From Enterobacteria phage JenP1: a stretch of 60,754 nucleotides of DNA. Below, in pieces: positions 1 through 57,494 of the stretch. The translations under genes and the position numbers were made by a program. The notes under the pieces are model-generated. The model was not told where the DNA came from and did not search any database. It saw only the letters and a list, made by a program, of their open reading frames with translations. Position 1 is the stretch's first letter, and each line of letters opens with the position of its first letter. Location: sequence record NC_029028.1; one strand, written 5' to 3'.

Positions 1-552
1 ATGGTAAAGCCTATTCTACCTTGGACACGTAGCATTGAATACGAAGCCGATCTCACTAAAGAAGAGATGGCTATACGTGACTCTGTCGTTGAAGAATATC
101 TGTTCGATTATGATTGGGTTAATGCGTGTAAACGTGTTGGAATGAGCTCCGCAATGGCGTTTGATTATGCCAAACGTTTTCAGGATGATAGCTATTGCCA
201 AAGACGAATCAAAGAACTTCAACAGCAGAAAGCAAGAAGTGCTGAACGTGACCGCAAATATGAAATAGAACAAGAGCGCCAGCGCATCATTGAAGGTCTT
301 AGATTTGAATCCACTTATCGTGGTCCTGGATCTTCTCAAGCTGCTCGTGTTGCTGCATATAAACAATTATGTAGCATCTTTGGATTTGAAGCTCCTAAGC
401 AACAGAAGATGGATGTCGGTGTATCTACTGGTGTTATGCTGGTTCCTATGGTTGGTTCTATGGACGATTGGGAAAGAGTTGCTGGGGAGTCTCAGACTAA
501 GCTGCAAGAGGATACTTTAAATGGACTCAATGATTCAGACACCGTCCACTAA
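1..552 (+). CDS. terminase small subunit (putative)
   Basis: 183-aa ORF immediately upstream of and overlapping the large terminase; charged, helix-rich; ATG at position 1 is served by a Shine-Dalgarno at the window end if the sequence is circular. Confidence 0.5.
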   Translation: MVKPILPWTRSIEYEADLTKEEMAIRDSVVEEYLFDYDWVNACKRVGMSSAMAFDYAKRFQDDSYCQRRIKELQQQKARSAERDRKYEIEQERQRIIEGLRFESTYRGPGSSQAARVAAYKQLCSIFGFEAPKQQKMDVGVSTGVMLVPMVGSMDDWERVAGESQTKLQEDTLNGLNDSDTVH

Positions 553-2119
553 GGTAGTATGGAAACCACATCCGGGATCTCAGGTACTGGCACTAAGTTG
601 TCCAGCAGATGAGATTTTATATCATGGTACTCGTGGCCCTGGAAAGACAGATGCTCAGTTGATGCGTTTTCGTCGTTATGTTGGCATGGGGTATGGTAAA
701 CACTGGCGCGGTATCATTTTTGACCGAGAATACAAAAACTTAGATGACTTAGTTGCAAAGTCACAGCGTTGGTTTCCTGAATTTAATGATGGTTGTAAAT
801 TCTTATCTTCCAAGTCAGATTATAAATGGGTATGGCCTAGCGGCGAAGAACTAATGTTCCGTGTTGCTAAAAAGCCTAAGGATTACTGGCTGTACCACGG
901 TCAGGAATTCCCATTTATTGGGTGGAACGAATTAACTAAATATCCGGATAGTGGACTTTACGAAGCAATGAAGTCCTGTAACCGTACATCCTTTGTTGCA
1001 GAAGAGAACCCGATAATTATTGACGGTGATGTGTATCAGCGAACTGGGCGTCTTGTTCTCGTTCAACCAGATCACGAGTACGCAATGCAGTTCATACTAC
1101 CACCTTTGCCGTTGCAGATCTTCTCTACGACTAACCCATTTGGAGTTGGACATAACTGGGTCAAGAAGTATTTTATTAACTCTTGTCCGTTGGGGTCAAT
1201 GAAGAAGGAAGTGACAAACGTCTTTAACCCGCGTACACAAAAACGGGAAGATGTAATCCGTACTCGCTGTCATATATTTGGTTCATACCGAGAGAACCGC
1301 AACTTGACACCTGAGTATGTTGCACAGCTTGTAAACATCGACGATCCTAACCTCCGCATGGCGTGGCTCGGTGGTAGCTGGGATATTACGTCCGGTGGAA
1401 TGTTCGACGACCTGTGGCGACAGAATATACATGTGGTCAAACCATTCCCGATACCTCACTCCTGGAGAATCGATAGATCATTTGACTGGGGCTCGAGTAA
1501 ACCATTCTCTGTCGGTTGGTGGGCAAGAAGTGATGGTAGTGATATCGTTTATCCAGATGGGCGTCGTGTACGAACTGTACGAGGTGACTTGTTTAGGATC
1601 ATGGAGTGGTATGGTACTAACGGGAAACCGAACGAAGGTTTAAGATTATTGGATTCTGAAATTGCTCGTGGTATCATCGTCAGGGAAATTGAAGCTGGTT
1701 TATACGGTCGCGTAGTTCCAGGCCCTGCTGATAACAGCATTTGGGACGTTAAGGACGGTAACAGTACCGCAGCAACAATGTCTAAACCAATAACTATCAA
1801 TGGTCGGTCTTATCCCGGTGTACAGTGGATTCGAAGTGATAAATCCCCTGGATCTCGTAAAGCAGGTTGGAAACGAATGCGGGAATATTTAGCTGCTTCA
1901 ATTCCGGATCCTAAGGTTGCCGCTTTACGTGAAAGACCTTCTATGTTTATTTTTGACAACTGTCACCACTTTATAGATCTTGTTCCAACTCTTGCCAGAG
2001 ACGAAGATGATCTTGATGATGTCGATACTGATTCTGAAGACCACATTGCTGACGAAGCTCGTTATCGCGTAGCCAACGAAGCACGTGGCGGCAGTATCGG
2101 TAAGACTGTGGGGACATAA
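521..2119 (+). CDS. terL: terminase large subunit
   Basis: 532 aa; Walker A-like GTRGPGKT near N-terminus; position before portal; C-terminal acidic nuclease-like region; start 521 or 530. Confidence 0.8.
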   Translation: MDSMIQTPSTKVVWKPHPGSQVLALSCPADEILYHGTRGPGKTDAQLMRFRRYVGMGYGKHWRGIIFDREYKNLDDLVAKSQRWFPEFNDGCKFLSSKSDYKWVWPSGEELMFRVAKKPKDYWLYHGQEFPFIGWNELTKYPDSGLYEAMKSCNRTSFVAEENPIIIDGDVYQRTGRLVLVQPDHEYAMQFILPPLPLQIFSTTNPFGVGHNWVKKYFINSCPLGSMKKEVTNVFNPRTQKREDVIRTRCHIFGSYRENRNLTPEYVAQLVNIDDPNLRMAWLGGSWDITSGGMFDDLWRQNIHVVKPFPIPHSWRIDRSFDWGSSKPFSVGWWARSDGSDIVYPDGRRVRTVRGDLFRIMEWYGTNGKPNEGLRLLDSEIARGIIVREIEAGLYGRVVPGPADNSIWDVKDGNSTAATMSKPITINGRSYPGVQWIRSDKSPGSRKAGWKRMREYLAASIPDPKVAALRERPSMFIFDNCHHFIDLVPTLARDEDDLDDVDTDSEDHIADEARYRVANEARGGSIGKTVGT

Positions 2120-2131
2120 GGAGTTCAACAG

Positions 2132-3658
2132 ATGGCCATTTCTTCGGTTCATCCTAAATATTTACAGTTTAGTGCATTATGGTTGAAGATGCGGGACTGT
2201 TTCCTTGGAGCTGACCACGTTAAGGCTCAAGGTACTTTGTATCTTCCACCGACACCTGCTATGCGTTATGACGGTATGAAACCAGGCGAAGATGGCTATA
2301 TCCGTTACAACGATTATAAAGACCGTGCAGTGTTCCCGGAGTATGTCGCCGATGCAGTAGTTAATCACAGTGGTATGCTTCATAGTAAGTCAGCTATTAT
2401 TCAGTTGCCTGCTGCAATGGAACCCCTTCGTCAATCTGCTACCAGCAAGCGCGAAGGTTTAGATCAGCTATTACGCCGCATAAACGAGCTACAGCTACGC
2501 GATGGTCGTCTTGGCCTTCTGTTGGAGCTGCCAGCGGGAAGTACCCGTGACACGCTGCCGTACATTGCGGTATACGAGGCGTTAAGTATACGAAACTGGG
2601 ACGACGGTGAGGATGATCTTGGTTCACTTAACCTTAACCTAGTTGTTCTGGATGAGTCCAAAGAAGTAATGGACAAGACTTCATTTGATTGGACTTATAA
2701 AGTTCAATATCGAGTTCTTGTTCTTGGAAGCGCCAATGTAGACGAACCGACAGATAGCGGTTACGTGTATGGGCAGTACATGACAGAACTACTTCCTGGT
2801 GAAGATGACGAACCAGAAGAGGTGAGCTCTGACGTTGTAGTCCCTCAATATAAAGGTACTCCGCTTGAGCAGATACCTTTCGTATTTTGTAACGCTATGG
2901 ACTTAGTCCCAGAACCAGATAAACCACCGCTACTTGCATTAGCAAACAGATGTATTTCCATTTATCAGGGTGAAGCTGATTATCGACAGGCTTTGTTTAT
3001 GCAGAGCCAGGATACGCTGGTTGTTCGTGGTGGTATTACGAACAGTGACGCAGTTGATGATAAAGCTCCTGTTCGTGTCGGTGCTGGTGCTCGTATTGAT
3101 GTATCTCCGGACGGTGATGCCAAATACATTGGTACTAACTCGCAAGGTCTACCGGAGCAACGTAAGGCACTTGAAGCTGATCATAAAGACGCTCAGACCC
3201 GCTCTGGGCATTTGACCAGTGCAGAAAGTGCTGCTCAAGAATCTGGTGATGCGCTGGAAACACGTCTTATCACTAAGACTGCTTCATTGGTCGGTATCGC
3301 TAAGACTGGTGCTGCTGCATTAGAAAAAATCCTTCGTATCTGTGCTATATGGATGGGTCTTGATCCTGAAGAAGTTAAAGTTATACCTAATCTTGACTTC
3401 AGCAAAGCTAACATTGAAGGTCAGGAACTGGTGCAGGTACAGACTGCTAAGAATCTTGGTGCTCCGTTGTGTGCTGAGTCTATGCACAACTGGTTGCAGG
3501 ATAAGGGAATGACCTCTTTGACGTTTGAAGAGGAGATGGAACGACTTGAGAAAGAGCGCGAAGAATATCCATTCCTCCTACCTCAAGTTAAGAATGATCA
3601 GAACCAAATCCAGCAAACAACTGGAAAACAGACGGGGAATGAAAATGCCGATAAGTAA
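2132..3658 (+). CDS. portal protein
   Basis: 508 aa ORF directly after terminase and before scaffold/capsid genes; size and position typical of portal. Confidence 0.7.
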   Translation: MAISSVHPKYLQFSALWLKMRDCFLGADHVKAQGTLYLPPTPAMRYDGMKPGEDGYIRYNDYKDRAVFPEYVADAVVNHSGMLHSKSAIIQLPAAMEPLRQSATSKREGLDQLLRRINELQLRDGRLGLLLELPAGSTRDTLPYIAVYEALSIRNWDDGEDDLGSLNLNLVVLDESKEVMDKTSFDWTYKVQYRVLVLGSANVDEPTDSGYVYGQYMTELLPGEDDEPEEVSSDVVVPQYKGTPLEQIPFVFCNAMDLVPEPDKPPLLALANRCISIYQGEADYRQALFMQSQDTLVVRGGITNSDAVDDKAPVRVGAGARIDVSPDGDAKYIGTNSQGLPEQRKALEADHKDAQTRSGHLTSAESAAQESGDALETRLITKTASLVGIAKTGAAALEKILRICAIWMGLDPEEVKVIPNLDFSKANIEGQELVQVQTAKNLGAPLCAESMHNWLQDKGMTSLTFEEEMERLEKEREEYPFLLPQVKNDQNQIQQTTGKQTGNENADK

Positions 3659-39136: not shown

Positions 39137-40084
39137 TTACTGTGCAGCGTCATCGCCTTCAGTGGAACGTTTCCACGGTGGAGTCTTGGTCTGAGCTGCT
39201 TTAGCGATATCGTCCTGGACTTCTGGTTCTGCATGGTTAGCAGTACCAGTATTCTGAGCTTGAGTTTGTGGTTGCTCTGCTCCAGGTTGTACCTGCTGAG
39301 TTGCCCAGTTAGGTTGCTGCTGAGTCTGCTGCTGCGGTTGCTGCGCACCAGTAGCCCACGGTTGAGATTGTGCCGCACTGTTAAAATCAACTGTTCCAGA
39401 CTGCTGAGGTTGCTGCTGTTGCTGTACCGGCTGCTGCGGCTGTTGTTGCTGTTGTTGCTGTTGTTGCTGCTGGAACCCCTGAGTCTGAGGTTGCTGCTGC
39501 TGTTGCTGCTGTTGCTGCGGCTGCTGCCCAAATGCGCCCGGGAAACCCTGCTGCGGTTGCTGCTGTGGCTGCTGAGTACCACCGAACGCACCGCCACCAA
39601 ATGCTGGAGACTGTGCTGCCGCTGCCGGAGTTGATTTAGGCAGGTTAGCCATGTCCGCCTTAGTTGCGTATACAACACCTTCCATATTATCAATTGCTTG
39701 ATAAATCTGAGGTTCGTTGTTTGGCTCATAGCCAGGTTGCTGACGAACTTTCACTTTCAGGTTGAACGGAATACCGTGCAGTTGTTCGGTATCGTTCCAA
39801 ACTGGAACTTTAACAGCACGAGACAGCTCTGCCAGTTCTTCCATTGCAATCTGTACAGCGACAGGGTTTGCGTTCTTGACGTTGTAACCGCCAAACATCA
39901 CACGACCAGCAAAATCACCCTGCATAATCTTAAACTGAAGATTCAGACGCGCACCGCCTGGAGTTTTAGTCGGTTTGATCTCAGAGTTTACAATCTGAAC
40001 AACATACCAACCAGCGGGCATCAAGCTATTGTGTTGACGCTCTGCGTGTTGTCCAGCGTTAAATTGCATTCCTAAACCGGCCAT
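39137..40084 (-). CDS. DUF669-like putative ssDNA-binding protein with long poly-Gln linker
   Basis: N-terminal WYVVQIVNSEIKPTKTPGGARLNLQFKIMQGDFAGRVMFGGYNV resembles DUF669 family; central ~60-residue Q-rich tract; adjacent to Sak4-like ATPase. Confidence 0.5.
   Translation of the reverse strand: MAGLGMQFNAGQHAERQHNSLMPAGWYVVQIVNSEIKPTKTPGGARLNLQFKIMQGDFAGRVMFGGYNVKNANPVAVQIAMEELAELSRAVKVPVWNDTEQLHGIPFNLKVKVRQQPGYEPNNEPQIYQAIDNMEGVVYATKADMANLPKSTPAAAAQSPAFGGGAFGGTQQPQQQPQQGFPGAFGQQPQQQQQQQQQPQTQGFQQQQQQQQQQQPQQPVQQQQQPQQSGTVDFNSAAQSQPWATGAQQPQQQTQQQPNWATQQVQPGAEQPQTQAQNTGTANHAEPEVQDDIAKAAQTKTPPWKRSTEGDDAAQ
39395..39600 (-). repeat. CAG/CAA trinucleotide-rich tract encoding poly-glutamine
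   Basis: runs of CTGCTG/TTGCTG on plus strand giving Q runs on minus strand. Confidence 0.8.
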
Positions 40085-46321: not shown

Positions 46322-46349
46322 ATGGGCGCATATAGCGCCCATTTTTTTT
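46322..46349 (+). terminator. intrinsic terminator
   Basis: stem ATGGGCGC / GCGCCCAT followed by TTTTTTTT. Confidence 0.65.
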
Positions 46350-48897
46350 ATAACTTAATAATCTTCTCCATACGTTCGATATCCACTAAATAACACTTCA
46401 TTCTCGGTGGTACAAAATCAGGACCGAATAAACTTGAGAAGTCCATAGGCCTCATTTCAGCAAGAACTTCCATAGACATCAGACCATAAATTGTATTGTC
46501 TATGACCTGCAATATGTTGTCGTTTCTTGTCTGCTTGAACGCTTTAAATTGCCTACAATAAGTACATAAATCACTCCGTGTAACTATAAACGAGTCCTTG
46601 AACATTGGGAATTTATCATACACATAAGCCTTCACTTCCCCGTCCAGGAATCTTTTTATAGTGGCAAGCATTATCTTCTCACGGCTTGTACTGTCTGTAG
46701 ACCCAATTTGCCCACTATTACGCTTCTCTAAGAAACGCTCGTTACCCTGATCAATAAAGGACTCAGCCCAACGATAATGTTCCATAGTAACAACAGGTCG
46801 TTCACTGTTATCCGCCACAGCAAGAAGAGAGGCGATACGCAATACCTTCAACGCCTTCCTTGTGTACATCTGACGAATTACTTCGTCTTGCACCTGCTCA
46901 CCATCATTGCCGCTGTTCAGGAACTTCGCAACAACATTATCAAGATTATCAAACGCTTCGTGTACCTCTGCTTCCATTTCAACATAACACGGAGCAGTCC
47001 CTGACATAATACGCACAGCTTGTTTATAGATAGCTCCAATAGTGCGTAGAATTGCTTCTGGATATTCCAGGAGCATACTTTTATTCATCAACGGTCTGTC
47101 AGCTGTACATTCCCATGCGATAATACGGGACATGAAGCCACTCGACATCATGCGGTCATCAACGTTCCCGTAAAATTCATCCGGTGTCGTTTCACCTGCA
47201 AAACTATACGCCTTGACCTTACCGCCAGCAGTCGTATTATCTTTACTAGAGTGCTTTGAACCACCAGAGAAAGCATAGAAATGCCCCTTGTCATAAAGGG
47301 AAAGCATTTCATCCATAATGTCTTTAGCTTTACCGACTTCCATCTTACCGTTACGGAAAAATGCACCGACTTCAGTCTTATAGTTGATGGATGAGCCACA
47401 AGACATAACGGACGTATCCATTATGACGTCCTTGCGCAATGCAGCGTCAGACGCATAGGTACTTGTATCCAAGACACGTTCGATACCAAATATCTGCTGA
47501 CCGTCTTGACCGCCATAATTGGATACTTGAGAAAGAATAGTTTCAATGTTGGAGCGAAACGCTTCTTTACCAATACCAGAACGTGCAATTAGTACAAAGT
47601 AGTTATTCAAACCACTTCGTGTAACTGTGTTCCACGCCTTACCGCACATACCACTAAATAAAGCAAGAGCAGACAGAATACTAATGTCTTTAATAGGCAA
47701 CAAGCTCGCTTTATACATATTACGCGCAACCTCGCCCATAAAGCCCGGAGGCCAAGCCAAACCGTCTGCCTGCTCTTCAGTGTAATTGCCATCTGTGGTC
47801 AACACTTCTTCTGGTGGGCGTTCTGGTGTAGTTGCTTGACGTAGTTTTTCCGTGCGCTCTATAGCTGCATTAACGTTATTCTGAACTATCTGCATAAGTC
47901 CCATAGATTTAACATGGGCATCATAGCGGTAGTTGCGAATCATTCTATCCAGGTGATACGGACGTTTGATTTTTTCACCAGGCAGACGACGGGAATCATC
48001 GTAACGACTACTCATTGGCGAATACATGAACAGACGTCTTACCTGGAAATTGTACTTACTCTTAAAGCAAAGAAAGTCAATTAATGCAAACTCTGCTTCA
48101 GACTGAGAAGGGAAACAACGTTCACCGATAGAAGTATCAACTTCTTCATCTCTCCAACGACCTTCCCATAGCTGCTTAAACAATGTTCCGTTTTCTTGTT
48201 CACACAACTGAATATAAACATCCTGGTCTTCCATTGCATATGGGTCGTTACTAAAATCTTCTTCAGTAAGTTCCAGCATTTGGAAGCCATCAGACTCATT
48301 AATCTCACTCATCTCAGACATAAGCTGATGAATGAGATTAGCGATATACCCTTCGCTTTCACTGCCTGGAGCACCAGACACAGTACGCGGAGTAATATCC
48401 CAGTGATCACCTGTACAGATAATAAAGCGATACTGTGAATACACTTCCACACCATCGCGGCGCTTACCAGCCTGAGGTATGGAATAAATCCATGTGTGCA
48501 ACCCATCACCGCTTCTGGAAATTTCCGTATAGCTATGGAACGATTCAACAATCTTCTTATATCGCTCACCAGCAACTTTCTTTTCCATTTCAGACATGGT
48601 ATCTTTAATGTCCATGTCGATACAACAGAACGGGTCACTTGAAAGTAGATAGAAACCTAAACGCAAGTTATGGCCAATCTCGTTATAATAACGAACGCAG
48701 CGTTCAGCATCTTCAAAAGACATAAGTAAATGCAGGTTAGACGGTTTCTTATCGTTGCCGTCTTTACGAAGTGGGACCATATCCCCTAAATCATCGTCCC
48801 ATACATAAGGTTGTTTTTCTGATGATGTACCTGGATGGAAACCGCAGACAGCCCACTGTTCGTATTGTTTAATTTCTTGAGGAAAAAGTTCCAGCAT
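46348..48897 (-). CDS. DNA primase-polymerase (AEP/Prim-Pol superfamily) with large C-terminal domain
   Basis: 849 aa; N-terminal motifs CIDMDIKD (DxD) and SRSGDGLHTW (sxH). Confidence 0.55.
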   Translation of the reverse strand: MLELFPQEIKQYEQWAVCGFHPGTSSEKQPYVWDDDLGDMVPLRKDGNDKKPSNLHLLMSFEDAERCVRYYNEIGHNLRLGFYLLSSDPFCCIDMDIKDTMSEMEKKVAGERYKKIVESFHSYTEISRSGDGLHTWIYSIPQAGKRRDGVEVYSQYRFIICTGDHWDITPRTVSGAPGSESEGYIANLIHQLMSEMSEINESDGFQMLELTEEDFSNDPYAMEDQDVYIQLCEQENGTLFKQLWEGRWRDEEVDTSIGERCFPSQSEAEFALIDFLCFKSKYNFQVRRLFMYSPMSSRYDDSRRLPGEKIKRPYHLDRMIRNYRYDAHVKSMGLMQIVQNNVNAAIERTEKLRQATTPERPPEEVLTTDGNYTEEQADGLAWPPGFMGEVARNMYKASLLPIKDISILSALALFSGMCGKAWNTVTRSGLNNYFVLIARSGIGKEAFRSNIETILSQVSNYGGQDGQQIFGIERVLDTSTYASDAALRKDVIMDTSVMSCGSSINYKTEVGAFFRNGKMEVGKAKDIMDEMLSLYDKGHFYAFSGGSKHSSKDNTTAGGKVKAYSFAGETTPDEFYGNVDDRMMSSGFMSRIIAWECTADRPLMNKSMLLEYPEAILRTIGAIYKQAVRIMSGTAPCYVEMEAEVHEAFDNLDNVVAKFLNSGNDGEQVQDEVIRQMYTRKALKVLRIASLLAVADNSERPVVTMEHYRWAESFIDQGNERFLEKRNSGQIGSTDSTSREKIMLATIKRFLDGEVKAYVYDKFPMFKDSFIVTRSDLCTYCRQFKAFKQTRNDNILQVIDNTIYGLMSMEVLAEMRPMDFSSLFGPDFVPPRMKCYLVDIERMEKIIKL

Positions 48898-51178: not shown

Positions 51179-51799
51179 TTACGCTCCAAACTGATCAATG
51201 TATTCAATGAGCTCTTGCAATTCTTGCTGTAACTGCACATTACCACTATTATTCGTCTGAAGTCTAACGAGGCGTTCTTTGATATGTGCAATGTGGTTAC
51301 TGCTCATCCGACGCTTCTGTACATCACACCAACGAACAACACCATCTTCAATATACGCACGACGCGCTTTACCACGCGGGTATCGCAACGGCCGAACTTC
51401 ACACTTATCGTCCACCCACTTAAAGCCCAGGATCATAACAGCGTTACCTTCCGTATCAGGACACACGTCAAAGCAACTGTTGAACCCTTTACTGCGCATA
51501 TATTCGTTCAGCGGAATCACACAATCCACCTCTAACAACCAGTATCCGAAGTAAATGTCAACAGTGAACATCATCCCTAACATCGGAGCCGACCAGCACA
51601 TATACATCCGCCCGTCATCCAACTTCTTGACCGCATTCGGCCGCAACACGAGGCCAGCCGCCTTCCACGCTTTGACCACATTACTTAGGCTGTCTTTGTG
51701 CTGTTCTAATATGGCTACCGCTTTGGCGTACATTTGTTCGTCATAACCGAACATTTCCTGTACGTGTGCGTGCGTTATTTCAATATTACGATTCCGCAT
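51179..51799 (-). CDS. hypothetical protein, first gene after leftward control region
   Basis: 206 aa ORF, no motif recognised. Confidence 0.45.
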   Translation of the reverse strand: MRNRNIEITHAHVQEMFGYDEQMYAKAVAILEQHKDSLSNVVKAWKAAGLVLRPNAVKKLDDGRMYMCWSAPMLGMMFTVDIYFGYWLLEVDCVIPLNEYMRSKGFNSCFDVCPDTEGNAVMILGFKWVDDKCEVRPLRYPRGKARRAYIEDGVVRWCDVQKRRMSSNHIAHIKERLVRLQTNNSGNVQLQQELQELIEYIDQFGA

Positions 51800-51859
51800 A
51801 ACCTCACCCTTGATAATAATAAATCGACTGATTTTGAAATTCAGTTGCCAAGTTTTAAT

Positions 51860-52010
51860 TTATGCAAAGTTTTTGCTATTTGCAACCGTGATATTTTGCG
51901 GTGTTTGTATGTGCAATGTTTTTGCTTTTGCAAAAATTACAGCAGTCTGAAGGTGAGAAATTGCAAATTTATAAAGATCGGTGAAAAAATGCACAATTTA
52001 TAAAGATCCA
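51860..52010. repeat. AT-rich region with direct repeats (AATTTATAAAGATC x2, TTGCAA-type motifs)
   Basis: two exact 14-mers at 51966-51979 and 51995-52008; multiple TTTGC/GCAAA elements. Confidence 0.6.
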
Positions 52011-52681
52011 GCAACATACGAACCAGTGAAGCGAAGTGTATGAAAAATAAGGGAAAATTTCGAGGGTTGGGAGGTTTGTATGAATTTATATTATTTATAA
52101 AGGGGTCCCGTAGGGGTCGTCAGTAGACAACTCAAAAATAAAAAAATCTTTATAAAATTTATATAAATACACACACATACACATTTTTACCTTATTTTTC
52201 ATGCACTTACCTCCTTTCATTTCGTTTATTAAGCGACTATATATGAGCAATATGACATATATTTGTTGCGCAACGACTGTGTGTTTTCTAACCAATCGAA
52301 AGATTACTTTATATACGTCCGCGCGTCTAACACAAAAGAAAAGTGGATTGCAAGTGATTTTTGCTGAGGTAACTCTCGAAGTGAAAGCGATTTGCGAGTT
52401 TGAAATTTTGTAGCCCGAAAACGATTCTATTTTATGGTATAAATGTCGGATTTTTCGGGCAAAGCCGGCTTTTCGGTGAGGTTGGGTGGCTGGGATCTGG
52501 GTAACGGGTAGCCCATAAATCGAAAATAGCCGCGAAAACGGGGCACGCAGCGCGATTAAATGGTTGGATCAGTGTAAGGGTGGCGGTGAGGGGCGAAAAT
52601 GCCGCAAATTGCCGCTTTTTAACGCTTAAATCTGGTGACATAATGTACTATTATTGATATGAAAATAGTTCGCGACAGAAT

Positions 52682-52711
52682 TTGCTATCAAGAATCGCGG
52701 GTTGGTATAAT
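52682..52711 (+). promoter_or_regulatory. sigma70-like promoter with extended -10 (TTGCTA-18-TGgTATAAT)
   Basis: consensus TATAAT at 52706-52711 with TG two bases upstream; followed by GGAGG RBS and ATG 52741. Confidence 0.45.
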
Positions 52712-52740
52712 GCACTTGTCAATAATAACGGGAGGTAACA

Positions 52741-53213
52741 TGGACTGGAGTAATTATTTTGAATATAAGGATGGTAAATTATTCTCTAAGGTAACTAGAG
52801 GGAAAGTAAAGGAAGGTGACGAAGTTGGCACGCTGGACGCGAACGGTTACAAGGTGTTTTCGTTCAAGGGCAGACGGTATTATGTGCATCGCGTTATATA
52901 TGAGATGCACTACGGTCCAATTCCGACCGGTATGGTGGTAGACCATATTTGGCGCAACCGTGCGGACAACCGAATTGAGAATATACGTGTGGTCACCAAG
53001 AGTGATAATGCAAAGAACGCAAAATTGTATAGTAATAATTCAAGCGGCGTGACAGGTGTAAGATGGGATAGTCAACTTGGCAAATATTACGCCTATATTA
53101 AAGCAGACGGTAAATTAAAAAGTTTGGGACTATTTGAAAGCAAAGAGGAAGCAATAAAAGCCCGTAAAGATGCAGAGGTCAAATATTGCTTCCATGAGAA
53201 TCACGGTAAATAG
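52741..53213 (+). CDS. HNH homing endonuclease with AP2-like DNA-binding domain
   Basis: YVHRVIYEMHYGPIP...VVDHI.RNRADNRIENIRVVT..N (HNH) then GVTGVRWD...GKYYAYI (AP2-like); ORF track starts at 52659. Confidence 0.65.
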
Positions 53214-53462
53214 TTATTTATTATCTAATAGTACAGCCCAGGTATTATCTGGAAGCGTACCAATTCCAAGCGGTTTAACTTGCTTGTCTTTTTGCTGCAT
53301 ATTGTAGTCGTCAATTAACTGCTGCGCGGCGAACATGGCGTTCGCTTTAGCGTCCAGAGCGTAGTCTATATCTTCCACCTTGCACATATTCAGACCGACA
53401 GCTTTGAAGCGAGTACCACGGGACATAGTTGGAGCCAGGGTCTTGACATGAATAGCTTGCAT
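53214..53462 (-). CDS. hypothetical protein
   Basis: 82 aa ORF. Confidence 0.35.
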   Translation of the reverse strand: MQAIHVKTLAPTMSRGTRFKAVGLNMCKVEDIDYALDAKANAMFAAQQLIDDYNMQQKDKQVKPLGIGTLPDNTWAVLLDNK

Positions 53463-53530
53463 AATAATTTCCTCAGTTAACTATGCGAAGTGCATATTAT
53501 TGCCCACTGTTACTATGGGCAATGTATATG

Positions 53531-53695
53531 TCACTCAGCGGACATATATTCTAACGCTTCTGATAGTGTAGCGAAGTGACCATCACTTACCAGATTAATA
53601 GCGTACTCAAGTTGATCGCGGGTTAGGTTGCGAAACTTGTTGCGGATGTGATAGCAACGACCGCGATAAATAAACTGGAAATAGTTGCGTTCCAT
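53531..53695 (-). CDS. hypothetical small protein
   Basis: ATG 53695 with AAGGTGA RBS (ORF track 53773 overlaps upstream gene). Confidence 0.35.
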   Translation of the reverse strand: MERNYFQFIYRGRCYHIRNKFRNLTRDQLEYAINLVSDGHFATLSEALEYMSAE

Positions 53696-53705
53696 AATTA
53701 TCACC

Positions 53706-53951
53706 TTATTGAATAATAAACGCGTAACCGCTCTGGTCCGGTAGCTCTCCACCAGCGAGGATCTCAAACTCAACGCCCGCTTTGGCGTTTAACTTTTTGA
53801 TAAGCTCTTCCGCTGCTGCGCGGTGGTTGCCTATGATGTCTAATCTATAATCCCAGCCAACGGTAACTTTACTGTTCCAACTTTTAGCGACAACGCGCGG
53901 TCCGAGAGTGTTAGTAGCAGCCAGGAATTTGGTGATGATAGCTTGAGCCAT
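53706..53951 (-). CDS. hypothetical protein
   Basis: 81 aa ORF. Confidence 0.4.
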   Translation of the reverse strand: MAQAIITKFLAATNTLGPRVVAKSWNSKVTVGWDYRLDIIGNHRAAAEELIKKLNAKAGVEFEILAGGELPDQSGYAFIIQ

Positions 53952-53956
53952 GATAA

Positions 53957-54142
53957 TTACTCCGGTAAAATTACAGTGACGTTAATATTTGCAATGCGAG
54001 CGCACTCGCGGAAACCTTTTACATACGCATCCATTTCGTCATAGGATGCGAAAGTTGCGTGCGGGACTGGACCACTGTTAATATTCACGCAATATTCGTA
54101 TTCTTCCAGGTCAACCCAGCAGTGTAGAACTATAGTTTCCAT
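53957..54142 (-). CDS. hypothetical small protein
   Basis: ATG 54142 with GGAGGG RBS (ORF track 54175). Confidence 0.4.
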   Translation of the reverse strand: METIVLHCWVDLEEYEYCVNINSGPVPHATFASYDEMDAYVKGFRECARIANINVTVILPE

Positions 54143-54220
54143 ATTATTTGCCCTCCGTATAGTACAGACCTGCAACTATTGGAGCGCCGAACACTAAGAA
54201 GGCCAATAAGTAGAACATAA

Positions 54221-54715
54221 TTAGTTGCCCCCTTTATTGTTGAGCGCGTGGAATTTACGCCATGCGTAGAATTCAATCGTTGCATTATTAATATTCCAAC
54301 CATTAGCTTTCGCAAGGTCACGGACGTTACCAATAGTTGGCACACCATTAGGCAACATATTATCCAGAGCGTTCCAAACGTCTGCGCATTTACCTTTAAT
54401 CGGCCGACGAACCCCGTTGCGCGTTTCGCTGCGTGCTTTACTTTTAGCGGGAGCGACCGGAGCTTGTTGTGTGGTCACTTCCACGACAGTCGCTTTATCA
54501 GCTTCAACCAGATCGTTAGCTGCCTTATTAACCGCGCTTTCGCTGAACCAGTAGCGGCCACCGTCTTCATGCGGCTCCTGGTGAATAAAGCTGTTAGCTG
54601 TCGCAGTGTCCACATCCAGAACCTTTTTCAAGGCACGGCGAGCGTTAGACATATTGGTGAAGAAGCGAGCATCTTTTGCTACGCGAGTGATAGTAGCCAT
54701 TGTGATTATCTCCAT
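54221..54715 (-). CDS. hypothetical protein
   Basis: 164 aa ORF. Confidence 0.4.
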   Translation of the reverse strand: MEIITMATITRVAKDARFFTNMSNARRALKKVLDVDTATANSFIHQEPHEDGGRYWFSESAVNKAANDLVEADKATVVEVTTQQAPVAPAKSKARSETRNGVRRPIKGKCADVWNALDNMLPNGVPTIGNVRDLAKANGWNINNATIEFYAWRKFHALNNKGGN

Positions 54716-54776
54716 GTTGTTCTAGCGGATTGCTAGTGGGAGCCCACTGTGACAATGGGCAACCATTAGCACGCTA

Positions 54777-55082
54777 TTATTGCTGGATAGCTTTAGCTAT
54801 CATTGTGATGAAGCAGAACACAGACCAAAGGCTATTCGCTTGGCATACTGGTCTACCGTACATTACGCTATAAGAGCTGACAGTGCCGTCCTCGTTAATG
54901 CGAATATATAACGCGGTGCTGGAATATTTTTCGTTGCCCGGGAGCATTACCAGATACTCGTCAAAACCCCAATCCCCTTCAACCTTTTCCGCAGTAAGGC
55001 CCAGTTGGTGCAGGCGCTTGCCGATAATACGTTTGGTGATCTGAGACTGGGACATGGAACGCGGTAAATAGATAATAGACAT
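54777..55082 (-). CDS. hypothetical protein
   Basis: ATG 55082 with AAGGGAG RBS (ORF track 55151). Confidence 0.4.
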   Translation of the reverse strand: MSIIYLPRSMSQSQITKRIIGKRLHQLGLTAEKVEGDWGFDEYLVMLPGNEKYSSTALYIRINEDGTVSSYSVMYGRPVCQANSLWSVFCFITMIAKAIQQ

Positions 55083-55175
55083 AATGCAATCTCCCTTCGG
55101 GTGAAGCGGGCGCGGAACCCGTGTCCCGCTTGAAAACCCCCTTAACCCCACGCGTTTATAATACGAATTTTAGAT

Positions 55176-55205
55176 GTTGGATGCAAGTAGCATCCAACAA
55201 TTTTT
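55176..55205 (+). terminator. terminator-like hairpin (plus-strand orientation)
   Basis: stem GTTGGATG / CATCCAAC followed by TTTTTATTATTTTTT. Confidence 0.35.
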
Positions 55206-55213
55206 ATTATTTT

Positions 55214-55522
55214 TTAGCCCGGTAGCTTACCAATATCCCCGTTGATAGCTAGATAGCTGGGAGCTATTTGGTTGCTAAAAATAACGCTGGTATATTGTGC
55301 ATCCGGTAAAATAAACACCTCTAAATAATCACACTGTAAAACTATTTCCTCCTCATCCATTTGTGTTGTTGTAAAGCCCACTGCGTTGGGCGCGTTAACT
55401 AGCGCGGTGGTGTGCTGCGCGGGCACCTGGTAACTAATATGCAGGCCGCTACCATAACCGTCCACGGCGTGCTGTGTGCTGTATTTGCGGATGGTGGTGT
55501 GCATAACGTGTAAAGTAACCAT
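55214..55522 (-). CDS. hypothetical protein, first gene of leftward early array
   Basis: 102 aa; RBS AAAGGGGG 7 nt upstream of ATG. Confidence 0.45.
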   Translation of the reverse strand: MVTLHVMHTTIRKYSTQHAVDGYGSGLHISYQVPAQHTTALVNAPNAVGFTTTQMDEEEIVLQCDYLEVFILPDAQYTSVIFSNQIAPSYLAINGDIGKLPG

Positions 55523-55798
55523 ATAAAACCCCCTTTTGGTATGTATACTTGCCCAACTAGTATGGTAGTTTAAAAAACGCTACCCCCTGGGCCCAATGGA
55601 GTAGCGTTACGCAACGCTTGCACGCTGCGTAAGTGCTGCGCGTGGGGGTGTACCCCCACACAGCACGGGTATTATAACGCATCCAGTGGATGTAAAAAAC
55701 TAGTATTCAAAAATAGTCTTGTAAATTTTTAAGTCCTACTATTAAAAGCAATCCGCATAGTAACCGACGCAACTATGCAAACGTATATAGCAACGATG

Positions 55799-55987
55799 TG
55801 TATAATAACAGACATTACTATATAGTCCGTTATGGTAGGCTGTGCCACTATCCATAGGTTATACTATGTGCATGTATATAGTAACGGATGTAATAATACT
55901 GGACATTACAGTATGGTGATGCAATAGATAGCACACTAATCTAATAAAAAATAATAACGCGTGTAATAATAAACAACGTTACAATAG
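55799..55987. repeat. three imperfect ~27-bp direct repeats (TGTAATAATA-n-GACATTAC-n-TAT) in divergent control region
   Basis: copies at about 55799-55825, 55889-55916, 55963-55987. Confidence 0.55.
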
Positions 55988-56350
55988 AACACACAACAGT
56001 CACATGACGTAACAATCACCTCACTGACGATCACGGGACGTTATAGTAACGCCGCGGGGCGGCTCTTAGATCTCTGCCAAGGATTCTTCGTTTGTAGATT
56101 ATCTCGTCACTAGACACTTTATATCCTCACCTCACATGTCCTATATTGTTCGTATAAAGTTAGTTCCGTATGTAAATACTCGAGAGACGATTTAAAACAT
56201 TCGGTTTGCCGGTATGCGTAACGGATTCTGCGGCACCATGAATTAAAGCACACGAGACGACTAACTGTGGTTATTAATTGTTGCGGTCACGTATGTTAAT
56301 CAACTTGCGTATCCTGTTATAGTTATTCCGTTAACGTTAAAGGGGGTTAT

Positions 56351-56713
56351 ATGAACGAGAATATAGTTAAAGCCTGGTCTATGTTAAGACCACAGCTAAA
56401 AGACGATCGCGTCGCTTTTACTTTGTGTCCGACTAACGAGTATCGCCGACAGCTTGAAGAAGTGTTGCGCGAAGATCCTGAGTTTGTTCGCTGTGTGCAA
56501 CTGTCGCGTGAGTCATCCGTAGTACAGTTCGATCGCTTCCACCTTCGTTTGGTTTCTCATCACAGAGCCTCGTATGAAGACACTGTTATTCGTACGAGCG
56601 GCTTCCATTGTGACATTGCAATTCTTGATTGCAAATTGGACATTGAGCAGAAACAAGATTTATATAATCTCGCTCATGAACGTCACGGTGAACTGTTAAT
56701 TGTGGAAGTGTAA
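56351..56713 (+). CDS. hypothetical protein, first gene of rightward array
   Basis: 120 aa; RBS AAGGGGG before ATG. Confidence 0.45.
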   Translation: MNENIVKAWSMLRPQLKDDRVAFTLCPTNEYRRQLEEVLREDPEFVRCVQLSRESSVVQFDRFHLRLVSHHRASYEDTVIRTSGFHCDIAILDCKLDIEQKQDLYNLAHERHGELLIVEV

Positions 56714-56715
56714 TA

Positions 56716-57054
56716 ATGGCCAAAGATATCGTTATTCCGAAAATGTATTGTCAGCTCCGTGATGCTTTGTTACAGAGCGGTTGGATTATTAGTCACAGCG
56801 ATGTAAATGACACTTATATTGTTCTTATACCACCTGAAGGGACGATATCCTGCATTCTGCACTATATGCCCGAAGCGAAGACGGTTTACCCGAACGGTTC
56901 ATTCTTGCTACGCTTGCGCTCCGATACATGGAAGATCCAGACGGATACCTGTGCAATTGACGAGAATACCAGTAAAGAGTTTATTCGTAAGCTGAAGCAG
57001 ATGAATAAAATTTACGAGCATGTTAAATTTGACTTATTTAAGGAAGTTTTCTAA
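56716..57054 (+). CDS. hypothetical protein
   Basis: 112 aa ORF. Confidence 0.4.
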   Translation: MAKDIVIPKMYCQLRDALLQSGWIISHSDVNDTYIVLIPPEGTISCILHYMPEAKTVYPNGSFLLRLRSDTWKIQTDTCAIDENTSKEFIRKLKQMNKIYEHVKFDLFKEVF

Positions 57055-57494
57055 TGATTACCATGAAAGACCGTATCACCCATAAAACTCAGCAAAGCAT
57101 GATGGCTTGCATTCCTACCTGCCTTGCTATGCTTCTTGACAAAGACCCTAAGCAGGTGGATGACGAGTTCACAACGGATTATATTCGTGGTTTTACTGAC
57201 GTGTCGAACTATCTGTATAAGCACGGTGTCTTTGCGCAACCACATATCACCGCTGGTATGCACCAGATTCGACCTGGGCGCTTGTATCTTGCCACTGTAC
57301 CCTCTTTGCAGTTACCTGGGCTTTTCCATCAGATCATTATCGACGCTCGTTTTGATGGTGTAACCGTATACGATCCAGCGAAAGGTCTGGAAGGGAAACA
57401 ATACTATTCCTATGACCACATTGCAGAGGATAATGAGTTGGCATATCCTCTGCGGTCTTTCCTGATTGATTACGAAATTATATTACCGGAGTGA
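57054..57494 (+). CDS. papain-fold cysteine peptidase domain protein (C39-like)
   Basis: 146 aa; Q...MACIPTCLAML (Gln/Cys region) and downstream H/D-P arrangement HQIIIDARFDGVTVYDP resemble C39 peptidase domain. Confidence 0.45.
   Translation: MITMKDRITHKTQQSMMACIPTCLAMLLDKDPKQVDDEFTTDYIRGFTDVSNYLYKHGVFAQPHITAGMHQIRPGRLYLATVPSLQLPGLFHQIIIDARFDGVTVYDPAKGLEGKQYYSYDHIAEDNELAYPLRSFLIDYEIILPE

Follow-up and report, generated by a model that had tools for sequence, protein, structure and literature searches.

Concatemer junctions of the T7/T3 type and the lambda cosN/cosB region with its R-site repeats are built alike, with a fixed, partly dyadic cleavage site beside repeated accessory sites. The terminase uses these sites on concatemers; T7 carries repeats of about 160 bp, and lambda makes cohesive ends. 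To our knowledge, no defined site of this kind is known for a siphovirus with a long terminal repeat. Here, we analyzed the divergent gap at positions 55523-56350 of the genome of Enterobacteria phage JenP1 (sequence record NC_029028.1; the whole stretch of 60,754 nucleotides is referred to as the window). The conserved center of this gap probably serves as a site at which a chromosome end is formed, and not as a promoter cluster or a replication origin. Its likeness to the T7, T3, and lambda packaging sites is one of analogy only, as the sites themselves are not homologous.

The closest described locus is the intergenic region of phage 9g (Kulikov et al. 2014, PMC4276943), which is homologous to the JenP1 gap, has a mapped DNA end at the equivalent position, and is likewise flanked by divergent gene arrays. 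For 9g, 91 reads were reported to start and 23 to end at position 28,243. Because reads also cross this position, a terminal repeat is implied. The 9g publication contains neither a repeat length nor the invariant core, the repeat arrays, or the shared 13-mer described below, and its promoters are BPROM predictions only. The read coverage of 9g is reported to be about 1.5-fold higher in the half of the genome with the early genes and to change abruptly at exactly the position of the mapped end (PMC4276943); a repeat of 3.4 kb does not account for this difference. For two further phages of the genus, HdSG1 and HdK1, the authors placed the genome ends at the position where most reads stop abruptly, and the repeats of these two phages were not discussed (Korf et al. 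2019, PMC6563267). Iggy, a related member of the subfamily, has mapped terminal repeats and a bidirectional genome. In the literature on the subfamily, we found no description of a defined end site of this kind, and the literature on the genus yielded neither transcription-start data nor a study of a terminase site.

The closest functional analogy is the 'Repeat Region 3' of T5 (Davison, bioRxiv 10.1101/866236). This region is untranslated, rich in repeats and palindromes, straddles the inner repeat boundary, and is more conserved than the neighboring genes, and the T5 repeat carries early genes. In contrast to T5, the repeat in the window would comprise 4 kb instead of 10 kb, and an array of DnaA boxes is lacking.

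The window represents the complete genome of a 9g-like coliphage of the genus Nonagvirus. Unlike HdSG1 and HdK1, it was deposited without a terminal repeat, and the record has no terminal redundancy. The region matched 13 distinct Nonagvirus phages (9g, JenK1, JenP2, SE1, HdSG1, HdK1, BRET, and others) with 90-94% identity. The terminase genes open the window, with the small subunit at 1-552 and the large subunit at 521-2119. Genes are directed rightward from 1 to 24 kb and leftward from 25 to 52 kb, and this bidirectional layout is the one described for the subfamily.

The gap measures 828 bp, and, as an initial annotation of the sequence had stated, it is free of genes and divergent. It does not contain an open reading frame (ORF) of more than 44 aa, and it is bounded by the starts of the leftward gene (55522) and of the rightward gene (56351). 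Both genes indeed share the same ribosome-binding site (RBS), AAAGGGGG, at 55529 on the minus strand and at 56339 on the plus strand, and only three copies of it exist in the genome. The gap is not one unit, because homology to the relatives breaks at 55166/55867. Instead, it is a composite of the upstream and leader part of a cassette (55523-55866), a block that is conserved in all relatives (55867-56194), and a probable gene remnant together with the promoter-proximal region (56195-56350). The putative boundary of the terminal repeat splits the gap into 543 bp inside and 285 bp outside the repeat. This boundary, at 56065/56066, is the dominant feature of the gap and was missed by the initial annotation.

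The position of the boundary follows from the relatives. Position 28,243 of 9g maps exactly to position 56065 of the window, and the flanking sequence is identical. The GenBank entries of HdSG1 (MK373795) and HdK1 (MK373794) contain perfect terminal repeats: in HdSG1, nucleotides 1-3363 are repeated at 60233-63595 (3363 bp, 100% identity), and in HdK1, nucleotides 1-3367 are identical to the last 3367 bases (100% identity). The repeats of both phages finish with ...GCCGCGGGGCGGCTC, which corresponds to 56051-56065 of the window, and their left ends map to 52094 (HdSG1) and 52097 (HdK1). In the relatives, a fixed physical end is thus marked by the pile-up of reads, and the same block is present at both ends of the virion DNA. 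For JenP1, we infer from these relatives a virion DNA with a direct terminal repeat of about 3.4-4 kb and an end at 56065/56066.

The equivalent of the repeat in the window would comprise about 3.97 kb with about nine small genes. The cassette and an HNH gene make it longer than the repeats of HdSG1 and HdK1. The HNH gene, located at 52659-53213 on the plus strand, encodes a homing endonuclease with HNH_3 and AP2 domains and is not present at this place in any of the compared relatives. As the gap probably contains a chromosome end, the genome should be linearized at 52094 and 56065, with the repeat of about 4 kb present twice per virion, and the gap should not be labeled simply as a promoter region or an origin. 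The end and the elements around it are the following:

56065/56066, unstranded: putative genome end and right boundary of the direct terminal repeat (the repeat being 52094-56065 in window coordinates)
56008-56086, unstranded: near-invariant core, spanning the genome end
56010-56033, unstranded: box TAACAATCACCTCACTGACGATCA within the core
56038-56050, unstranded: palindrome CGTTA-TAG-TAACG within the core
56051-56063, unstranded: GC-rich dyad GCCGCgggGCGGC within the core, just 5' of the cut

The core was conserved to an extent that was not found in the coding sequence (CDS) next to it. In 15 genomes, 76 of its 79 columns were invariant, and the longest invariant run, with a length of 51 nt, extended across the cut. 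The mean pairwise identity was 99.2%, whereas the CDS at 56351-57494 reached 89.7%. Of 1066 windows of 79 nt taken from CDS, not one reached the conservation of the core, and the best one contained 69 invariant columns. An explanation of this conservation by an RNA or a hairpin was dropped, as a signal for single-strand structure was lacking in the core (z = 0.0). Searches of Rfam did not yield a match at gathering thresholds for the whole window, or at E<=1 for 51700-56500, and a search for tRNAs found none. Because the core has neither a fold signal nor an Rfam match, the constraint is best explained by recognition of the core as duplex DNA.

Distantly related sequences were also available in the form of three IMG/VR contigs (L028-L030), in which the homologue of gp42 is only 45-47% identical. 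These contigs keep the 24-nt box TAACwATCACCTCACyGAyGATCA as well as RTAACGCCGC. They also have a GC-rich palindrome directly before the presumptive cut; between the window and the contigs, its sequence varies (GCCGCgggGCGGC, GCCCGGGC, and GCCGCGGC), and the palindromy is kept. The left limit of the strictly conserved site is marked by a further metagenomic relative, L017 (IMGVR_UViG_3300000289_000015), which has a 16-nt deletion equivalent to window positions 55992-56007, between the core and the nearest of the direct repeats described below (R3).

Additional motifs were found near the boundaries of the repeat:

56104-56116, plus strand: 13-mer TCGTCACTAGACA, 38 nt to the right of the right cut
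52117-52129, plus strand: twin of the 13-mer, TCGTCAGTAGACA, 23 nt to the right of the left repeat boundary
56016-56024 and 56127-56135, plus strand: direct repeat TCACCTCAC, flanking the cut

The 13-mer, TCGTCA(G/C)TAGACA, is a candidate recognition element that is common to both repeat boundaries. Only two exact copies exist in the 60.7 kb, both on the plus strand, and 0 matches were obtained in 100 shuffled sequences. Its geometry, namely strand, side, and offsets, is alike in 10 relatives. In HdSG1 and HdK1, both the repeat boundaries and the 13-mer offsets correspond to those of the window. L028-L030 contain one or two copies of the 13-mer after the presumptive cut. The two copies of TCACCTCAC are the sole ones in the genome, compared with an expectation of 0.24, and in L028 a shorter version, CACCTCAC, is present on either side of the presumptive cut. 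An inverted 8-mer, TCGTCAGT at 56023-56030, mirrors the 13-mer; this match is at chance level and is lost in L028, and it was not relied on.

Around the left repeat boundary, a further long noncoding region (51800-52658, about 860 bp) is conserved. In this region, TTTATAAAG occurs at 51968, 51997, and 52094, and an inverted copy is found at 52148. In addition, an inverted repeat (52034-52057/52185-52208) brackets the left end of the repeat, and the segment 52330-52610 is highly conserved.

The gap contains direct repeats, which lie inside the terminal repeat at 80-280 bp from its end, and an array of a shorter motif:

55787-55822, plus strand: R1, in the cassette-specific segment; kept in contig L021, absent from the 9g-type relatives
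55878-55913, plus strand: R2, with the invariant head ATAGTAAC 188 nt before the cut in all relatives
55951-55986, plus strand: R3, with its head 115 nt before the cut in all relatives
55757-56050, plus strand: array of five same-strand copies of ATARTAAC, at 55757, 55802, 55878, 55951, and 56043

R1, R2, and R3 had been noticed in the initial annotation as three imperfect repeats of about 27 bp at 55799, 55889, and 55963. They are members of a family of 36 nt (D1) that start at 55787, 55878, and 55951; relative to the reference copy, the identities are 67% and 75%. The repeats are above chance: the best pair of 36-mers matched at 27/36 positions and the best family of three copies at 25/36, and 0/300 dinucleotide shuffles reached either value. 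R2 and R3 are conserved in the relatives (93.6%), and R1 is part of the cassette. R3 contains an everted pair, TAACG-N14-CGTTA, and is preceded by an A-rich tract (55943-55952). In place of R1, 9g (L001, 2390-2470) and 11 relatives have three direct copies of ATACCAGGTARC, and the distant contig L028 has many copies of ACAGGG(G/T) at the equivalent place. Therefore, each lineage has its own repeat array distal to R2.

Each of the repeats R1-R3 contains or starts with ATARTAAC. The five copies of this motif are located at -309, -264, -188, -115, and -23 relative to the cut, with spacings of 45, 76, 73, and 92 bp, and 15 nt separate the last copy from the cut. The expectation calculated from the remainder of the genome is 0.19 copies, for a motif that was picked with the data in view. 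In 12 relatives, the three copies nearest to the cut (-188, -115, and -23) are kept and a fourth one is present at -326 in the variable segment of these phages, and L028 also has a same-strand array of RTAAC. The extended ATARTAAC pattern of 21 nt occurs nowhere else in the genome, and therefore it is not a general phage promoter. The R repeats were also considered as promoters, and when both strands were read by eye an acceptable -35/-10 geometry was not found.

The initial annotation had suggested a replication origin as one possible function of the region. In an origin of the iteron type, the repeats would bind the phage primase-helicase or another initiator beside an AT-rich unwinding element. 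The orientation of the repeats is uniform, a stretch with 82% AT lies between R2 and R3 (55937-55976), and the phage has its own primase-helicase, encoded at 46348-48897 (identified via the annotation of HdSG1). However, the spacings of the array are irregular, unlike the regular phasing of iterons, and no initiator gene is adjacent to the repeats. The scan did not reveal any IHF sites, and the sole DnaA-like box is part of R1, which is specific to the cassette, and this box is not kept in L021. The minimum of the cumulative GC skew is near 52 kb (51800-52658), not 56 kb, and the skew follows the gene orientation. Lastly, the tightest conservation is centered on the mapped DNA end and not on the repeats. 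The suggestion of an origin thus turned out to be unsupported, and we regard it as highly improbable.

Another proposal of the initial annotation was a promoter/operator cluster. The following candidate promoters and associated elements were considered:

55158-55186, minus strand: candidate leftward promoter TTGCAT-17-TATTAT for the conserved next gene
56118-56147, plus strand: candidate distal rightward promoter TTTATA-18-TATATT (score 9.16, 99.87th percentile)
56296-56323, plus strand: candidate proximal rightward promoter TTAATC-16-TGT-TATAGT with an extended -10 (score 8.68)
56329-56336, plus strand: palindrome CGTTAACG, followed by the RBS AAAGGGGG (56339-56346) and the ATG (56351); the segment 56296-56350 is near-invariant in the relatives

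These leftward and rightward promoters are proposed from the nucleotide sequence. The candidate at 56118-56147 is conserved except in HdK1, and CTGyTATAGTTA, with the extended -10, and the RBS AAAGGGG are kept in distant relatives (L028).

In an early promoter/operator cluster with divergent transcription, the copies of TAACGGA/TCCGTTA and the 36-nt repeats would be operators, and a phage regulator bound to them would switch transcription in the leftward and rightward directions. A divergent control region is plausible, as the gene arrays diverge at the gap, and it has already been proposed for 9g: for the homologous gap of 603 bp, the authors of the 9g study proposed the promoters Pl and Pr and suspected partial repression (PMC4276943). 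Short dyads are present in R2 and R3 (TGTAAT-N10-ATTACA and TAACG-N14-CGTTA), and the invariant CGTTAACG has an operator-like position, downstream of the candidate -10 of the first rightward gene and upstream of its RBS. The four copies of TAACGGA/TCCGTTA listed in the initial annotation were confirmed at 55826, 55882, 56219, and 56327; they represent 4 of the 15 copies in the genome, a local enrichment over the about 0.2 expected in 828 bp. In the PL/PR region of lambda, divergent arrays likewise flank a noncoding gap with short dyads.

However, the motif was mostly not conserved. Three of the four TAACGGA copies are changed to TAACAGA or TAACCGA in L021, the closest relative with the same cassette, and in other relatives two of the three alignable copies are altered; the kept copy is only the one inside the CGTTAACG palindrome. 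The density of promoter-like sites in the gap equals chance, with 4 sigma-70-like sites compared with 4.1 expected in a consensus scan. A scan with a weight matrix, the frequencies of which are approximate, yielded 3 sites above the 99.9th percentile compared with 2.7 expected, and two of these are inside genes. In addition, R1-R3 lie outside the best promoter candidates, and in the relatives the leftward promoter adjoins the first gene and is separated from the repeats by about 370 bp.

The neighboring proteins did not provide a regulator either. A Pfam DNA-binding family was not found in the ten neighbors, and the notes 'TetR' and 'sigma factor' of the 9g record were not reproduced. In fact, the ten flanking proteins had no Pfam match at all, and their PHROG families are all of unknown function. 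For the first rightward protein, an AlphaFold model with a predicted local distance difference test (pLDDT) score of 61, built from a shallow alignment of 7 sequences, was too poor for a fold search, and a deeper search with this gene revealed only homologues restricted to the same genus. Thus, unlike the lambda PL/PR region, the JenP1 gap has no identified repressor gene, its operator-like motifs are poorly conserved, and it contains a putative physical DNA end. An operator cluster would also leave the invariant core at the DNA end and the 13-mer at both boundaries unexplained. Taken together, a plausible divergent control region remains from this proposal, and a cluster of operators, for which R2, R3, and CGTTAACG are the remaining candidates, appears unlikely.

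The similarity to T5 raises the additional possibility of an injection-stop signal, at which DNA entry would pause as soon as the cell has received the repeat and the small early genes on it. As in T5, a long terminal repeat with small, variable early genes is combined with an untranslated region that is rich in repeats and palindromes, lies mostly inside the repeat, overruns the boundary (by 285 bp here and by 270 bp in T5), and is better conserved than the neighboring genes. Many indels in the adjacent genes and nearby HNH insertions also fit. However, 9g-like phages are not known to transfer their DNA in two steps. Furthermore, the eight ordered DnaA boxes of the T5 region are absent here, and sequence similarity to T5 does not exist. 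We consider a signal of this type quite improbable.

In our view, a chromosome-end site is the best explanation for the conserved center of the gap. The terminase would recognize the core and the 13-mer while packaging from concatemers and would cut at both repeat boundaries, so that a copy of the repeat would be present at either end of each packaged genome. The ATARTAAC array and the 36-nt repeats, at 23-310 bp from the end on its inner side, most likely act as accessory binding sites for proteins that take part in packaging or in the handling of the DNA tip. Ordinary host-type promoters would flank the end site and drive the small early genes of the repeat and the rightward gene set. A more far-reaching version would be that the conserved block and the region 51800-52658 together represent the complete cis machinery for both ends of a siphovirus genome with a long terminal repeat. 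In this version, the 13-mer would be the terminase recognition element, the GC dyad would mark the right cut, and the repeat array would be a binding array for the small terminase subunit or a T5-like entry-pause signal. This extended proposal is tentative, and we hold it to be somewhat doubtful.

Several points weigh against the chromosome-end site. The ends of JenP1 were derived from relatives and not from its own reads, and binding and cutting of the site by the terminase are predictions. The left and the right cut sites share little besides the 13-mer, and the distance from the 13-mer to the cut differs between them (23 compared with 38 nt). ATARTAAC, the 13-mer, and TCACCTCAC were chosen after viewing the sequence, and therefore the P-values are optimistic. 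As the block was inherited without indels, the fixed positions of the motifs in close relatives are not independent evidence. The deletion in L017 indicates that the distance from R3 to the cut is not strictly required. Finally, the candidate promoters are no better than the chance expectation.

Overall, the gap probably contains a conserved chromosome-end site flanked by the start regions of two outward gene sets, a layout that is known from 9g and is largely ordinary. The invariant core, the 13-mer at both boundaries, and the repeat array are new details, and they do not constitute a new kind of system. The core and the shared 13-mer represent a testable candidate for the specification of fixed-end, long-repeat packaging in the deazaguanine-modified Queuovirinae. 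For practical purposes these findings are of modest use, namely for the design of packaging-competent vectors and for the engineering of such phages without destroying the end site.

To the left of the conserved block, the window differs from 9g in that it has an extra cassette of 700 bp with an orphan gene of 102 aa; the 95-aa gene 9g_00039 is missing from the window. The features of the cassette are as follows:

55167-55866, minus strand: cassette, of which 55523-55866 (344 bp) are in the gap; replaces 191 bp of the 9g-type relatives
55214-55522, minus strand: orphan ORF of 102 aa, without a Pfam or PHROG family
55671-55699, minus strand: candidate leftward promoter of the cassette, with a perfect -10 TATAAT (55671-55676 on the plus strand) and a poor -35
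55642-55659, minus strand: GC hairpin GTGGGGGT-GT-ACCCCCAC, in the predicted 5' leader of the cassette transcript
55570-55608, minus strand: terminator-like hairpin (I6) followed by six T's, in the cassette leader (-15.9 kcal/mol, z = -2.36)

Homology to 9g, JenK1, and PD328 ends at 55166 and restarts at 55867, with the 700 bp in between. The cassette had no DNA or tblastn match in a phage collection (50,697 phage records) and none in IMG/VR, and a record with the exact sequence was not found. Its protein was detected elsewhere only in two Logan metagenome contigs, with 91-95% aa identity, one of them from SRR28368670. One Logan contig, L021, represents 18 kb of a Nonagvirus genome and has the cassette in the same arrangement. 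The left 344 bp of the gap therefore belong to a cassette that is known only from JenP1 and two metagenomic contigs. The cassette shows that new small genes insert beside the end site without disturbing it.

The candidate promoter of the cassette reached a weight-matrix score of 8.85 (99.84th percentile genome-wide), and its sequence is identical in L021; it may serve as the cassette promoter. The GC hairpin, which the initial annotation had pointed out near 55643, was recovered; it folds with -8.7 kcal/mol, and its z-score is only modest (-1.65). In L021, it is 4 nt shorter and still pairs as GGGG-CGTA-CCCC, and it is absent from all other relatives. The terminator-like hairpin at 55570-55608 is kept in L021, had no Rfam match, and could be an attenuator or the end of an RNA of about 95 nt. 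With a TATAAT promoter and three hairpins, the cassette leader (55570-55665, minus strand) could give rise to such a small RNA or contain an attenuator. A further strong hairpin with T-runs, at 55175-55199, lies between the cassette ORF and the next gene and is terminator-like on the plus strand. On the minus strand, it provides the -35 TTGCAT of the candidate promoter of the next gene, and therefore the insertion appears to have rebuilt the promoter that it had interrupted.

To the right of the end site, two further features were identified:

56172-56186, plus strand: conserved island GTAAATACTCGAGAG, with 89% over 28 nt kept in L028-L030
56195-56265, plus strand: probable deletion remnant of the gene for the 95-aa membrane protein (9g_00039); a remnant is also present in PD328, ESCO3, BRET, and L021

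In relatives, GTAAATACTCGAGAG directly precedes the gene of the small membrane protein, and GAGAGGAG acts as its RBS. The remnant is located at a hot spot for indels, about 130 bp outside the repeat boundary (56195-56265 in the window, 2820-3107 in L001, and 3536-4015 in L006). This spot is occupied by the 95-aa membrane-protein gene in 9g, JenK1, and SE1, by an HNH endonuclease gene in HdK1, and by the remnant of 70 bp in the window. Far from the gap, at 39287-39575 on the minus strand, coding repeats of 9 and 12 nt of the CTG/CTGTTG type are present within a leftward gene and probably encode a Gln-rich low-complexity segment.

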